From the NCBI GenBank assembly GCA_012727535.1, contig JAAYGU010000104.1, positions 5,269 to 69,268 on the forward strand: a DNA stretch of 64,000 bases, read 5' to 3'. Made by a program: the position numbers and the translations under genes. Numbering within the stretch: the first letter of the stretch is position 1; every line of letters starts with the position of its first letter. The notes under the pieces were generated by a model that saw only the letters and a program-made list of their open reading frames with translations, was not told the DNA's origin and did no database searches. The DNA is from Bacillota bacterium. GTDB taxonomy: Bacteria > Bacillota > UBA4882 > UBA10575. This document shows, in pieces, positions 5,955 to 60,406 of the stretch.

Positions 5955-6225
5955 GTTCTCTCTGTAGCTTGCTTCCGCCTGCCTATTATCAAGATCCGGC
6001 GCTTTTACCCTAATGCGCCGGGGAGCATCCTGGCCAGCTTGTTGGCAGTGGAGCTCGCGGTGTCAGCAGTAAGTAGAGCAAGGCCCGAAGGAGGATTAAG
6101 CGCACAATAATACTTGTGTATATCGAGTACCGCCTGGACTGGGCAACGCCGCTATGCGCAGCTGATCACGGCGTCTGGCAACAATCCGGCAAAGATAATT
6201 TGCTGTCTCCAGCTTGCTCGAAGCC
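5955..6225 (-). repeat. Copy A of the recurrent structured intergenic element (minus-strand orientation)
   Basis: The reverse complement aligns block by block with 50527-50795 and 60043-60283. The arms 6175-6192 and 6031-6048 pair at 15/18 positions. The tail hairpin CCGGCGC/GCGCCGG lies at 5996-6021. Confidence 0.75.
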
Positions 6226-6227
6226 AT

Positions 6228-6258
6228 ATAAAAACAGCCCCTGCTAACGCAGGGGCTG
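6228..6258 (-). terminator. Rho-independent terminator of the minus-strand GNAT-like gene
   Basis: Perfect 10 bp stem, CAGCCCCTGC (6235-6244) with GCAGGGGCTG (6249-6258), and a 4-nt loop. On the minus strand it is followed by TTTTTATAT. Confidence 0.85.
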
Positions 6259-6267
6259 AACTTTTGA

Positions 6268-7428
6268 CTAGAAGTCTAAACGGTAAATGCGGTAGATCTT
6301 ATAAAGATCGCCACCGGCCCGCAGGGCGTCGTTCACCATTTTAGTGTTGAATTCGTGGATGGTTGAACCTTCTCCGTACTTATAACCTTTCTTCAGGCCG
6401 GCTTTGAATAATTCTAGATACATCGCGGCCGAGACGCCCTTTTTGTGGTAATCGGGATCGACCATTAAGATCAGAGTGCGGGCGCCAGTAACCTTCTTTT
6501 TATACCATAAAAACTTAATAAAACCGAGAGGAAAGAGCCGCCCGTTCAGGCGTTTTAGGATCTGGTTGTAGTCGGGAAGCGCAACAGCGAGCCCGACAAT
6601 GTGGCCGGCTTCATCAACGGCAACAACTAGAAGGTCTTGATCGGCGATTGGTAGTAACTGATTGACCTCATCTTTAATCTCACTCATCCCAGGAGGAACC
6701 ATATCCGGCCAATCTTCCGGCCAGGACCGGACGAGCAAGCGGTGGATACCGACCAGTTCTTCGTCGAGCTTTTTCAGGTTTAACCGTCGGATGGTAAAGC
6801 GGTAGCGTTGCTTTAAGAGTTCGATGCTTTGTTCAAAACGTTCGGTGACTGGTTTGGATAGATCATAGTAAAAGGCATAGCGGTCAAAATCTTTCGTGAA
6901 GCCGTAACGGTCAAAGAAGTCTTGATAATAGGGAGGATTATAAGAATTTAATAAGACCGGCATCGAATCAAAACCTTTAACCAAAAGGCCTCGGTAATCG
7001 TCACCATTTGACGGGGACTGCGGGCCAGTAATACTGTGGATCCCCCGCTCTTTTTGCCATTCGGTAACCGCATCGAAGAGGCTGGCAGCGACTTGGTAGT
7101 CTTCGATCGACTCAAAAAGCGTGATGTAACCTTCCTTCTTGTTTTTCTCCTGATTTAGCTTCTCATCAATACCAGTTCCGATCCGGCCGACTGGTTTGCC
7201 ATGCGACCAGGCAATAAAGTATTGATAAGGACCCAATTTCATCAGGGGATTCTTTTTGGGGTTAACTGTATTCCACATGTCTGACTTTAAAGGAGGGACC
7301 CAGTTGGGGTCGTTCTTATACAACAGCCAGGGAAGGTTGATAAAGACACGCCAATCGCGTTTCGTTTCAACCTTGGAGACCGTAACATTGGCGACCAGCG
7401 GGAGCTCCTTTGAAGCCGTACTTCCCAA
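6268..7428 (-). CDS. GNAT-fold acyltransferase-like protein, uncharacterised family
   Basis: The C-terminal part resembles an acetyltransferase fold (LILMVDPDYHKKGVSAAMYLELFK). I moved the start to TTG at 7428, 8 nt after AAGGAGG. The ORF-track start at 7623 lies in an AT-rich promoter region. Confidence 0.5.
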   Translation of the reverse strand: MGSTASKELPLVANVTVSKVETKRDWRVFINLPWLLYKNDPNWVPPLKSDMWNTVNPKKNPLMKLGPYQYFIAWSHGKPVGRIGTGIDEKLNQEKNKKEGYITLFESIEDYQVAASLFDAVTEWQKERGIHSITGPQSPSNGDDYRGLLVKGFDSMPVLLNSYNPPYYQDFFDRYGFTKDFDRYAFYYDLSKPVTERFEQSIELLKQRYRFTIRRLNLKKLDEELVGIHRLLVRSWPEDWPDMVPPGMSEIKDEVNQLLPIADQDLLVVAVDEAGHIVGLAVALPDYNQILKRLNGRLFPLGFIKFLWYKKKVTGARTLILMVDPDYHKKGVSAAMYLELFKAGLKKGYKYGEGSTIHEFNTKMVNDALRAGGDLYKIYRIYRLDF

Positions 7429-7655
7429 AATTAACACCTCCTTATTATTTTGGCAAGATCGAATTTCGTGAAAGTTTGTGAAATCCCTGCCAAAGTAAAT
7501 AATAAAAGATGAAAATTTAATTAAAACCAGATTGTAACAGAGAGATCGTTGATTTTTGACTTGCTTTCTAGTATTATTTAGAGCATATGGGGGATTTTGC
7601 GGTAAAAAGCGGATTTCTTCCATATTTTTAAAGAAAAGGAGGTTTGTCTAGAAGC

Positions 7656-24882: not shown

Positions 24883-24959
24883 AGAAAGTAATTTAATACC
24901 ATCCAGCCCAGTTTGGTAAAAAATTGCGAGGCTTGGTATTGACTATTGGTACTAACGGA

Positions 24960-25018
24960 GTGACCAGCGACGAACTGCGAGAAAAAGTCCAGTCATTTAG
25001 CGAGCGACGAGCAACGAG
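24960..25018 (+). promoter_or_regulatory. GAR-heptad leader module upstream of the comB-like gene
   Basis: GTGACCAGCGACGAACTGCGAG, then CGAGCGACGAGCAACGAG. GAG triplets at 25002, 25009 and 25016 are spaced at 7 nt. Confidence 0.45.
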
Positions 25019-25075
25019 TACTTAGTCATATTTTCTAAGCAGCAAGCAACATAGATAGGGAGAGGTAAGGACAGC

Positions 25076-33621: not shown

Positions 33622-33627
33622 CGAGGC

Positions 33628-33655
33628 AAACCCGTCGTGGACGGGTTTTATTTTT
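33628..33655 (+). terminator. veg terminator
   Basis: AAACCCGTC, loop GTG, GACGGGTTT, followed by TATTTTT. Confidence 0.85.
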
Positions 33656-33699
33656 GCCCTTTTTGAAGCAGTTTGGGCTAAGCTTAATATTTTCGGGTC

Positions 33700-33835
33700 A
33701 GGGAAGTGCTCGGCGGGAGATTGTTGTGGTGCGCTAACAGGAAGTGGCGCCGCTCATGTCGAAATAGGAACCGGAATCCGGGGGCACCGGGCCTGTGATG
33801 CTTCGTCCTGTGGACAAGGTGCGGGCTCTTTTTTG
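33700..33835 (+). repeat. Diverged, shortened relative of the recurrent element, upstream of spoIID
   Basis: Shares ordered blocks with the core: GTGCTCG, ATTGTTGTGGTGCGCT (versus ATTATCTGCGCT), CGCCGCTCATGTCGAAATAGG (versus CGCCGCGAGTCGAATCTGG), TCCGG and GCACCGGGC. Confidence 0.3.
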
Positions 33836-33887
33836 AGAAAACGGTTCTGCTTGGACTCCGAAAAAGGTGGCGGAAACGAGGGTTAAC

Positions 33888-36423: not shown

Positions 36424-36556
36424 GGGTGGCTCTACTTGCTTTTCCCGCCGCGGGTCGAATCTGGACGTGAAGTTGCCGACTATCCGGTTAGGGGGTACTC
36501 CCCGGCACGTTGGGGTAATGGCACCGGGCTAAGGTATGGCGTTGGCTAAAGAGCGC
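36424..36556 (+). repeat. Copy D: 3' half of the recurrent element
   Basis: GGCTCTACTTGCTTTTCCCGCCGCGGGTCGAATCTGG ... TTGCCGACTATCCGG ... hairpin with GGGGTAAT loop ... GGTATGGCGTTGGCTAAAGAG aligns with the 3' halves of copies B and C. The 5' arm and the GCGGTGCTCGATAT block are absent. Confidence 0.65.
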
Positions 36557-36644: not shown

Positions 36645-36755
36645 ACGGGAGTGACGAAGGATGAGACGGGTAGGCCTGCTTGCAGCACGAGTGAGAGTGA
36701 AGGTGGCGATCAAAGGTTTGCTGGAGTGTGAATGACCAGCGACGAGAAAGGAGAG
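36645..36755 (+). promoter_or_regulatory. Purine-rich GAR leader module upstream of murB
   Basis: GAGTGACGAAGGATGAGACGG, CACGAGTGAGAGTGAAGG and GTGTGAATGACCAGCGACGAGAAAGGAGAG. The last contains the murB SD. Confidence 0.4.
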
Positions 36756-37676: not shown

Positions 37677-37744
37677 CGTGTGATGAATAGTATTCGCCAA
37701 GAATACTCTACCAAGAAATTCAAGTCAGCGGAGAATACCATTCA

Positions 37745-37812
37745 GTCCGGCCAAGTAAAGGCTTGCGTAGGCTGTCTGTTATTACGAGCGACGAGTGACG
37801 AGCGACGAGGCG
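37745..37812 (+). promoter_or_regulatory. Element tail plus tandem heptad GAG module
   Basis: CCGGCCAAGTAAAGGCTTGCGTAGG aligns with the tail of copy C (CCGGCTAGGTAAATGCTTGCCAAAGAGG). It is followed by ACGAGCGACGAGTGACGAGCGACGAGG, with GAG at 37786, 37793, 37800 and 37807. Confidence 0.5.
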
Positions 37813-50526: not shown

Positions 50527-50795
50527 AGGCTAGAGCAAGTGGAGAGAGGATGAATTTGCCGGATGGTCGGCAGGCGGCGTGATCAGCGGCGCATAGCGTC
50601 GTTGCTCGGTGCGGGCGGTGCTCGATATGGCCGATTATTATCTGCGCTCCGTCCTCCCTCGCGCCTAGCTCTGCTTGCTGCTGACGCCGCGAGACGAATC
50701 TGTGGGTTAAGTTGACAACCATCCGGCAAGGGTGCTCCCTGGTGCGCTGGGGTGATAGCGCCCGGTTTGGGAATGAAGTTGGCAGTAAAATGTAA
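50527..50795 (+). repeat. Copy B of the recurrent structured intergenic element
   Basis: The 5' arm 50556-50573 pairs with the 3' arm 50711-50729 (12/12 for the outer part). The core is GCGGTGCTCGATAT...TATTATCTGCGCTCCGTCCTCCCT...CGCCGCGAGACGAATCTG. The tail hairpin lies at 50739-50765. Confidence 0.8.
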
Positions 50796-60042: not shown

Positions 60043-60283
60043 GATGAAGCGATGAGTGATGAGGATCGAGATTATTTGCCGGATGATCGGCAGGCGGCGT
60101 GGAAAACTTCGTAGAGCTGCGTTCTAGGTGCGAGCGGTGCTCGATATACGCGAGTATTATCTGCGCTCCGTCCTCCCTTGCACCTTGCTCTACTTGCTTC
60201 TCCCGCCGCGAGTCGAATCTGGGAGAAATCTGCCGACCCTCCGGCAAGGTGCTGCCCGGCTAGGTAAATGCTTGCCAAAGAGG
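60043..60283 (+). repeat. Copy C of the recurrent structured intergenic element, inside the aro operon
   Basis: The 5' arm 60076-60093 pairs with the 3' arm 60230-60247 at 16/18 positions. By hand count, about 76 of 88 core positions are identical to copy B. It lacks the tail hairpin. Confidence 0.8.
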
Positions 60284-60290
60284 TCGTTCA

Positions 60291-60400
60291 CTACGAGTAA
60301 TGAACGACGAGGGGTAGTTGAACACGAGCGTGCACAACGAGCGGAGAACTGTTAATAGCGTGTGTGAAACCGAACGACGAGCTGCGAGTGCGAGGAGGGA
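60291..60400 (+). promoter_or_regulatory. ACGAG-rich / GAR-heptad leader module abutting the aroB SD
   Basis: Six ACGAG motifs, ending in CGAACGACGAGCTGCGAGTGCGAGGAGGGA. GAA/GAG triplets at 60372, 60379, 60386, 60392 and 60395. Confidence 0.5.
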
Positions 60401-60406
60401 CAACAG

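Follow-up and report, generated by a model that had tools for sequence, protein, structure and literature searches.

The 64,000-nt stretch of chromosome analysed here (the window; contig JAAYGU010000104.1 of the Bacillota bacterium assembly GCA_012727535.1) contains a dispersed, non-coding intergenic element whose copies share a unit of approximately 215 nt. The element behaves as a repeat that moves, or once moved, and that has at the same time retained a fold. Its copies have spread to, or been lost from, unrelated sites, their fold has been retained through compensating substitutions, their apical domain is conserved and they hold a single orientation relative to the upstream gene. The repeat had not been catalogued before and is confined to a narrow lineage of uncultured spore-forming Bacillota.

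Copies of the element in the window

An nhmmer profile and a covariance model (R1) were run on the 64 kb, and both recovered exactly four sites and nothing more, comprising three full copies (B, C and A) and one 5'-truncated copy (D):

50556-50765, plus strand: copy B
60076-60268, plus strand: copy C, between aroK and aroB (BLASTN, covariance model)
5996-6192, minus strand: copy A
36429-36551, plus strand: copy D, 5'-truncated, between the divergent splB and murB genes

A BLASTN search with copy B recovered copy C over 189 nt with 79.9% identity (E 1e-41). Copy A, on the minus strand, matched over 166 nt with 77.7% identity (E 1e-30), and 118 nt of a 3' half at 36429-36546 matched with 72% identity (E 3e-12). 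BLASTN, nhmmer and the covariance model therefore agree with the first-pass annotation, which had described a recurrent non-coding element at sites B, C and A plus a 3' half, and the ordered conserved blocks that it listed are present in the alignments. It had also named weaker relatives at 33700-33835, 37745-37812 and 24905-25020, but neither nhmmer nor the model found these at E<=1; they are not members, and the census of the window is 3.5 copies rather than four to seven. The window has approximately 1 copy per 15-20 kb, a higher density than in those related loci that were read. Element copies inside one genome are 14-22% divergent from each other, so they do not represent a young burst of near-identical copies.

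The copies have no reading frame in common, as had been noted from the sequence; their open frames vary in strand, phase and length, and insertions and deletions shift the phase. A small protein-coding gene was considered and rejected, as four frames are open across the GC-rich core, yet none is conserved.

Parts and boundaries of the unit

The unit common to all subfamilies consists of a rod of approximately 175 nt followed by a 7-bp hairpin. Its parts, with the rod helices numbered P1 to P4 from the base, and the neighbouring features are as follows:

50527-50555, plus strand: purine-rich 5' flank of copy B, with weak homology to copy A only (start -23/-27); outside the common unit
50556-50573, plus strand: 5' arm of P1 (TTGCCGGATGGTCGGCAG); sharp 5' edge of the common unit
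50574-50597, plus strand: 5' strands of P2 (GCGGCG), P3 (TGATCAGC) and P4 (GCATAGC), from RNAalifold
50604-50664, plus strand: apical domain (GCTCGG..GGGCGGTGCTCGATAT-N7-TATTATCTGCGCTCCGTCCTCCCTCGCGC), from the alignments; near-invariant across genomes
50668-50690, plus strand: 3' strands of P4 (GCTCTGC), P3 (GCTGCTGA) and P2 (CGCCGC)
50691-50711, plus strand: unpaired joiner between the 3' strands of P2 and P1; the least conserved segment in the unit, absent from copy A
50712-50729, plus strand: 3' arm of P1 (TTGACAACCATCCGGCAA)
50739-50765, plus strand: hairpin 2, with a 7-bp stem (CCGGCGC/GCGCCGG type) and the loop GCUGGGGUNR; 3' end of the common unit
50766-50792, plus strand: tail module (TTGGGWATGRNGTTGG...), separable; also occurs without the core
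60076-60093 and 60230-60247, plus strand: P1 arms of the copy C rod, with the apex at 60124-60183
60248-60268, plus strand: deletion junction of copy C; hairpin 2, the tail and a further module are lost
6175-6192 and 6031-6048, minus strand: P1 arms of the copy A rod, with the apex at 6083-6144 and hairpin 2 at 5996-6021
6230-6258, minus strand: intrinsic terminator with a 10-bp stem and a T run (terminator scan), between the upstream gene at 6268-7623 (minus strand) and copy A
36473-36490, plus strand: P1 3' arm of copy D, which retains the 3' strands of P4 to P1, hairpin 2 (36502-36527) and the tail (36529-36551)

Across subfamilies, homology has a sharp onset at the first base of TTGCCGGAT (-1/0) and ends at approximately +210 to +219, after hairpin 2. 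The inverted arms of P1 are not strictly terminal, as the unit extends 30-40 nt past the P1 3' arm and through hairpin 2. No direct repeat or target-site duplication was seen at the edges of B, A and the copies at loci L007, L011 and L015 of related genomes, where attached modules blur the edges, and the bases that precede the 5' edge differ (GAAT, TTAT, ATCT, CATA, CTCT and TTCT). No longer parent element bounded by P1 arms, and no autonomous insertion sequence with matching ends, was found in the window or in approximately 300 kb of related loci. Promoter and terminator scans yielded no passing candidate for a promoter or terminator inside the element, a promoter before it or a terminator after it. 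A possible outward promoter in the tail (TTGGCA-17-TTTAAT) had been proposed from copy B, but it is specific to that copy, fails the promoter scan and lies in a tail that is not conserved.

Beyond the common unit, the subfamilies carry modules of their own. In the 'group 1' subfamily (L006, L009, L014, L018, L019 and others), homology continues for a further 45-75 nt in the 5' direction and for up to 120 nt in the 3' direction, while the tail of the window subfamily reads TTGGGWATGGCGTTGG... The tail module is common to D, L007, L011 and L025, and stands alone at the aroK-aroB site of L027. These subfamily-specific flanks, together with a tail that occurs without the core, indicate a mosaic build.

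A long-range fold maintained by compensating substitutions

A consensus fold was computed with RNAalifold from 13 copies, and 16 copies with nested inserts removed were used for pair counts. The consensus is a rod of P1 (18 bp), P2 (6 bp), P3, P4 and the apical domain, with hairpin 2 as a separate 7-bp hairpin after the rod; it has an energy of -85.8 kcal/mol and includes 13 pairs with double changes. Across the 16 copies, 94.5% of the cells that should be paired are paired, compared with 33-52% when the partners are slid by 1-3 columns. Both sides have changed in 14 pairs (shuffled mean 7.2) and in 40 cells (shuffled mean 12.5), and these observed values were reached in none of 500 shuffles.

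The covariation extends through the nested helices of the rod. In P1, 95.7% of cells are paired and 5 of the 18 pairs show both-side changes, with the exchanges UA to GC, CG to UA (twice), AU to UA and CG to AU in either direction. At L005, the upper part of P1 (GCCGGCAG/CUGCCGGC) is swapped for GGAUGA/UCAUCC with pairing kept. P4 is 97.9% paired, with three covarying pairs and a clean exchange between AG:CU and GA:UC, and P3 is 87% paired with two covarying pairs. The double substitutions that the first-pass annotation had reported at arm positions 10 and 13 are real and recur in other genomes. Its arm pairings were reproduced for B (12/12, or 15 Watson-Crick pairs and one G:U over the full 18), C (16/18) and A (15/18, made up of 14 Watson-Crick pairs and one G:U).

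The two hairpins singled out at first reading fared less well as described. The stem of hairpin 2 is 95.5% paired and mostly invariant, although it had been presented as an optional hairpin with a varying stem; its lack in copy C is a secondary deletion of approximately 195 nt, as shown by a strain with a 99% identical AroB. The local hairpin at 50584-50604, said to recur at the same place, is paired in 78% of cells, compared with 87-98% for the competing P3 and P4. It is perfect in B and L007 but conflicts with these better-supported helices; some copies may adopt it as an alternative conformer. The apical domain, of approximately 60 nt, carries a CCUCCC stretch and two near-invariant G:U pairs.

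Occurrence in other genomes

An exact-pattern scan (GCGGTRCTCGATAT-N7-TATTAT) of one genome from each of 185,579 species returned 16 loci, of which 10 are true copies, all in uncultured 'Bacillota bacterium' genomes. These carrier genomes were assembled mainly from anaerobic-digester metagenomes; assemblies DUNX01, DUQR01, JAAZDX01, JAAYIC01, JAAYMP01 and JAEYRN01 are among the carriers. An exact-pattern scan of Joint Genome Institute (JGI) metagenomes added five true loci, which brings the total with the species genomes to approximately 15, and a search of 5.8 billion proteins with translated element frames as a proxy gave only four clusters, leading to four further loci (L028-L031). No match to the element was found in plasmids, phages or viral contigs. 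The family is narrow and rare in public data, and a large genome-wide family, as first projected from the window, is not demonstrated by approximately 15 true loci and four proxy matches.

In keeping with the first-pass annotation, which could name no matching RNA family, the covariance models of Rfam 15 gave no match at the gathering threshold in the window or in eight related loci. When the limit was relaxed to E<=10, copy B gave CRISPR-DR20 at 26 bits (threshold 42) and one small nucleolar RNA match, both of which were judged to be chance. Searches for transfer RNA and transfer-messenger RNA found none.

Gene context is shared by no two non-orthologous loci. The upstream neighbours are aroK, a GFO oxidoreductase, alaS, dus, carB, proC, serA, a glpK-like gene, a GH94 enzyme, a P-type ATPase and a MacB/FtsX permease, and the downstream neighbours are aroB, pepF, greA, ylmH, rseC and spoIIP. 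These flanking genes are unrelated housekeeping genes. By AroB identity, the nearest named relative of the window is Capillibacterium (63%), and further relatives stand at 99, 85, 83 and 81%. The contig ends inside the element in several assemblies (L010, L016, L020, L025 and L032). The repeat breaks metagenome assemblies of its carriers and can be mis-called as genes; a covariance model would help annotation.

Turnover at orthologous sites and nested insertions

The aroK-aroB site provides a series of states across relatives. The element is complete in L025, whose AroB is 99% identical to that of the window, with hairpin 2 and the tail present; in the window itself, approximately 195 nt have been deleted between CCCGGC repeats, removing hairpin 2, the tail and a further module. 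The 81% relative (L032) has the 5' half of the element and the 83% relative (L027) the tail only, and the element is absent from the 85% (L026) and 63% (L033) relatives. The site behind alaS is likewise occupied in L028 and empty in the window. Taken together, non-orthologous dispersal, polymorphism at orthologous sites and nested insertions identify a mobile-type repeat. The element had been called a structured RNA family rather than a young MITE, short for miniature inverted-repeat transposable element; structure-preserving variation and the lack of a near-identical burst bear out part of that statement, but the choice it poses is a false one, as this is a mobile-type repeat with a fold, a combination on record for bcr1, ERIC and BOX (PMC3184786, PMC2229807).

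Several copies contain or adjoin other repeats. A 286-nt near-perfect palindrome stands in place of the apex at L028 (10181-10466, minus strand), L029 and L030 (2307-2592, plus strand). Inside it are long inverted repeats that match perfectly (GGCGGGGTCTCCGGGAATCCGGA... and GGTGGGAAGGAAAACCGGG...), heptamers of an ACGAG type stand at its right end, and its sequence is the same at two unrelated loci. It is probably a further mobile element of palindromic form, unless the composite itself has spread. An insert of approximately 70 nt (...GATCGTTTTTWCAAACTTAAA...) lies at different positions in two divergent copies (L005 5013-5081 and L003 ~190-260) and represents a further small repeat family, the third. 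A palindrome of G and C only (GCGCGCGCGTATGCGCGCG or a variant) occupies the P2/P3 junction in L023 (~972-990), L018 and L028. At L030, a 5' fragment of the element (2056-2206; P1 and P2 5' strands, GC insert and P4 5' strand) stands in tandem just upstream of the full copy, and a pair of MacB/FtsX permease genes encloses both.

The site orthologous to copy B in the element-less 63% relative was also inspected. L033 and L034 carry at 575-583 the only TTGCCGGAT in 21 kb, 23 nt past the stop codon of the GFO-oxidoreductase gene, and ATCCGGTA at ~705-712, 130 nt downstream of TTGCCGGAT. This pair could be an ancient relic, a preferred target or chance (~1e-3); the fold at the site in L033 is not significant. 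Empty sites gave no guide to the exact insertion edges, as the spacers between relatives are unalignable.

Sequence constraint and orientation

In the orthologous copies L014 and L023, the core is 98-100% identical compared with 84% for the flanking coding sequence, and the tail is hypervariable. When the window is compared with L025, 32 of 32 positions of the element part agree, compared with approximately 65% identity in the adjacent spacer. The aroK-aroB spacer as a whole (window 60248-60406, L025 73-370) is approximately 65% identical with large indels (insertions and deletions), despite the 99% identity of AroB, and between relatives at 85% protein identity intergenic DNA is unalignable; either the intergenic DNA of this lineage turns over far faster than its genes or it is swapped by recombination. 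Such identity in the core points to constraint persisting after insertion, and could also be mimicked by gene conversion among copies.

All 15 non-orthologous copies with an intact 5' end are co-oriented with the upstream gene, and the 5'-intact copies start 23-155 nt (median approximately 45 nt) past its stop codon. At least 10 of the 15 lie between co-directional genes, where the opposite orientation was also possible. Copies A and L009 have no co-oriented downstream gene and face a convergent one, which argues against a role as a 5' leader. Replication and gene orientation are separated by copy A alone, which follows the gene. With its mutated apex, 8 A:C mismatches and missing joiner, copy A is also more decayed than any other copy, and it lies behind the terminator at 6230-6258.

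Proposed role and alternative explanations

On balance, we lean towards the view that the element is a repeat of the bcr1/ERIC/BOX type that is co-transcribed and acts as an RNA structure in the 3' untranslated region or between cistrons. It would be a non-autonomous repeat carried in the 3' untranslated or intercistronic part of the upstream messenger RNA (mRNA), where the stable rod would block or direct ribonucleases and thereby alter the stability or processing of the flanking message. The conserved apex may be a contact for a protein, either a mobilising enzyme or a host RNA-binding factor. Transcription, an effect on mRNA and a protein partner are proposed here by analogy with ERIC, Correia/NEMIS and REP/BIME, repeats for which RNA structures are reported to act on message stability or processing (PMC2229807, PMC3184786). 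The folding molecule is likely to be RNA: among the intact copies there are 13 G:U compared with 3 A:C mismatches, plus the two near-invariant G:U pairs of the apex, and of the two strands it is the sense one that has the better fold in 11 of 13 copies. A bolder version, which we regard as unlikely, is that the host retains the element as a structured RNA of approximately 215 nt whose 60-nt apex recognises a particular protein, or else is catalytic or acts as a sensor; the family would then form a new class of orphan RNA, moving about as mobile elements do and serving as a common post-transcriptional module behind many housekeeping genes.

Several observations weigh against a function of the folded RNA. 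The RNA nature of the folding molecule is itself something we infer, and the G:U asymmetry holds only when three decayed copies are left out, with a ratio of G:U to A:C of 21:18 across all 16. Single-sequence folding is unexceptional (z = -1.85 for the sense strand and -2.92 for the antisense strand). The apical helices P5-P7 are predicted only, as the apex is near-invariant and they show no variation with which covariation could be tested. Two or three clades make up the 16 sequences, among which there are orthologous pairs, and this reduces the independent compensatory events to approximately ten rather than forty, and template switching during replication can yield compensatory changes in hairpins without selection (PMC8794818). 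The folding strand is the G-rich, leading-type strand at every locus except copy A, so that orientation is confounded with replication strand and a strand-specific single-strand-DNA mechanism predicts the same picture. Finally, copies A and L028 lie behind an intrinsic terminator, where read-through from upstream should be weak. In L028 the apex has been lost to insertion, and the decay of both copies fits RNA-level selection acting on transcribed copies only, but two cases prove nothing.

Of the rival explanations, most weight falls on a non-autonomous derivative or relic of a single-strand-DNA transposon (IS200/IS605 or another HUH type, 'PATE'-like), although we think it improbable. The hairpins would then form in DNA on the lagging-strand template and serve excision and insertion only, while co-orientation with genes would be a by-product of strand bias and any RNA effect incidental. 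Such an origin is favoured by the G-rich folding strand of all copies but A, in a window whose GC skew is very strong and uniform (+0.15 to +0.19 per 8-kb bin) and whose genes lie nearly all on the plus strand. It is also favoured by the sharp 5' edge combined with no target-site duplication and no strictly terminal inverted repeat. The local hairpin and hairpin 2, which lie approximately 28 nt from the 5' edge and 5-10 nt from the 3' edge respectively, have the stem core GGCGC/GCGYC in common, and we take this pair to resemble the left-end and right-end hairpins of IS200/IS605 elements (IS608). Columns 60/70 of the local hairpin swap G:T for T:G in 7 compared with 6 copies, the apex and helices have taken up other palindromic inserts, and the near-invariant apex could be a transposase recognition site kept by descent from a 'master copy'. 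However, no Y1/HUH transposase, TnpB or other transposase is found among the approximately 55 genes of the window or beside any copy, no conserved tetra- or pentanucleotide precedes the 5' edge, and the long-range P3 and P4 beat the local 5' hairpin family-wide. Copy A lies on the other strand, and although copies differ by 14-22% within a genome, the core outlasts neighbouring genes at an orthologous site.

The same small size, lack of coding capacity and 18-bp inverted arms would suit a conventional cut-and-paste MITE, in which the P1 arms are terminal inverted repeats served in trans by a transposase and co-evolve through binding of one protein; dispersed copies that are polymorphic between relatives, including truncated and nested ones, would be expected of it too. 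We consider this very unlikely, since covariation continues through the nested P2-P4 helices, which protein binding at two ends leaves unexplained, and the conserved hairpin 2 lies outside the 3' arm. Moreover, no target-site duplication was found at edges that are blurred, strict single orientation is unexpected, and neither the window nor the approximately 300 kb of related loci holds a longer element with the same arms. Last in weight is a cis-regulatory role as a 5' leader, be it a riboswitch, an attenuator or a leader bound by protein, or alternatively a small RNA gene that stands alone and has CCUCCC as an anti-Shine-Dalgarno seed; we find this reading highly doubtful. The near-invariant apex with its CCUCCC stretch and the co-oriented downstream gene of most copies speak for it. 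Yet the downstream genes are functionally unrelated, the gene downstream of A and of L009 is convergent, close relatives differ in the form or presence of the element, and it has neither a promoter before it nor a terminator after it; a riboswitch-type regulon was rejected given the unrelated flanking genes and the lack of a terminator. The CCUCCC stretch is also largely buried in predicted helices, and pairing between it and the purine-rich 5' flank, considered as a pseudoknot or Shine-Dalgarno mimic, was rejected because the complementarity is no better than in shuffles.

The family joins mobile-repeat turnover with post-insertion constraint, two traits that are usually treated apart. If the proposed RNA role is true, it would be a counterpart of ERIC and Correia in a Gram-positive lineage for the recruitment of repeats into mRNA control. 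It adds an uncatalogued structured repeat family from the little-studied diderm spore-forming Bacillota of digesters and is a candidate for a structured-RNA catalogue. It opens no long-standing question, and specialists in bacterial repeats would be unsurprised unless the apex has a specific biochemical function.

Other repeats, leaders and genes in the region

The window is a piece of ordinary chromosome whose genes include aro and sporulation genes, alaS, ftsH and those for RNase J and outer-membrane-type proteins. Genes of the outer-membrane type (OEP, secretin and AcrB, and a LolA-like gene in L014) stand beside sporulation genes, which fits a diderm spore-former like Capillibacterium.

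Two of the three sites that had been listed as weaker relatives, 37745-37812 and 24905-25020, carry runs of ACGAG heptamers plus another repeat module, both of which also adjoin some element copies. The heptamer runs are 7-nt periodic (ACGAGYR / GAGYGAC, up to at least 10 units) and lie just upstream of ribosome-binding sites, at 37784-37810, 60293-60395, 24960-25015 and 36650-36745 in the window and at L028 9800-10000, L030 2790-2865 and L025 300-360 elsewhere. They show a strong strand bias (ACGAG is present 45 times on the plus strand compared with 17 on the minus strand, with clusters on the plus strand only), and often occur 3' of element copies but are also found without them. They may be a lineage-specific signal in 5' untranslated regions or a protein-binding array. 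The second short module (TCAAGTCAGCGGAGAAYASCATTCRGYCCRGCYAAGTAAA) is likewise located in 5' untranslated regions (window 37718-37770, L025 ~150-215 and L026 ~1170-1235), and its presence at the aroK-aroB site of relatives without the element indicates that it is independent of it.

The third site belongs to a GC-rich, hairpin-rich leader at 33690-33835, between a terminator at 33625-33655 and a spoIID-like gene at 33867. The leader, whose end is formed by a possible terminator (GGTGCGGGCTCTTTTTT), matches nothing in Rfam and is unrelated to the element; it may be an attenuator or an undescribed leader.

Comparison with known repeat families

Mobile intergenic repeats that fold as RNA are a known kind of element, while the family described here is itself new. 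The closest in behaviour is bcr1, a non-coding, mobile and transcribed repeat of 150-200 nt that is interspersed in intergenic regions of the Bacillus cereus group (PMC3184786). It is 'group A' of the repeats bcr1-bcr18, its distribution is not conserved between relatives, some copies are less stable, and its structure is kept at the RNA level via compensatory base changes (PMC3184786). The element shares with bcr1 the retention of a single-strand structure by compensatory changes in a dispersed Bacillota repeat. It differs in that bcr1, at about 155 bp, forms a cruciform of two independent stem-loops with 5-bp direct repeats, whereas the element is one rod plus a 3' hairpin with no such repeats detected. 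Strict orientation, a near-invariant apex and a different lineage also set it apart from bcr1, a separation made by description rather than by sequence.

ERIC is also close. ERIC/IRU elements are imperfect long palindromes in transcribed intergenic regions; they are co-transcribed, affect the stability of upstream mRNA in an orientation-dependent manner and include variants with internal insertions (PMC2229807). They are 127 bp long and proteobacterial, have 7-bp terminal inverted repeats and a TA duplication, and occur in both orientations, whereas the element is longer, keeps a single orientation and is without a TA or duplication signature. Its modular build recalls BOX of Streptococcus pneumoniae and BIME of E. 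coli, mosaics of modules that are intergenic or 3' to genes, transcribed and thought to be moved in trans (PMC3184786). The element has the same mosaic, modular character but no tandem boxB-type module within its core. REP units are palindromes of 20-40 nt with GTAG/CGTC tags (PMC3733652), unlike the present unit of approximately 215 nt with its 175-nt rod, and no RAYT/Y1 gene is found in the window. The Correia/NEMIS repeats of Neisseria are transcribed as long hairpins that are processed by RNase III and shift the levels of neighbouring mRNAs (PMC2229807). Of the 24-26-bp terminal inverted repeats, TA duplication, IHF site and outward promoters that Correia elements have, the element shows none.

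PATEs, which derive from IS200/IS605, are strand-specific, with subterminal hairpins, no terminal inverted repeats or target duplication and an orientation tied to replication. The element differs from these in its dominant long-range rod, in having no fixed target tetranucleotide and in the absence of a Y1 transposase or TnpB in the window and beside the copies. By its size, architecture, ends and host, and with no Rfam model that matches, the element falls outside bcr1, ERIC, BOX and BIME; distinctive here are its strict single orientation, its near-invariant apical domain and its rich nesting and mosaicism.

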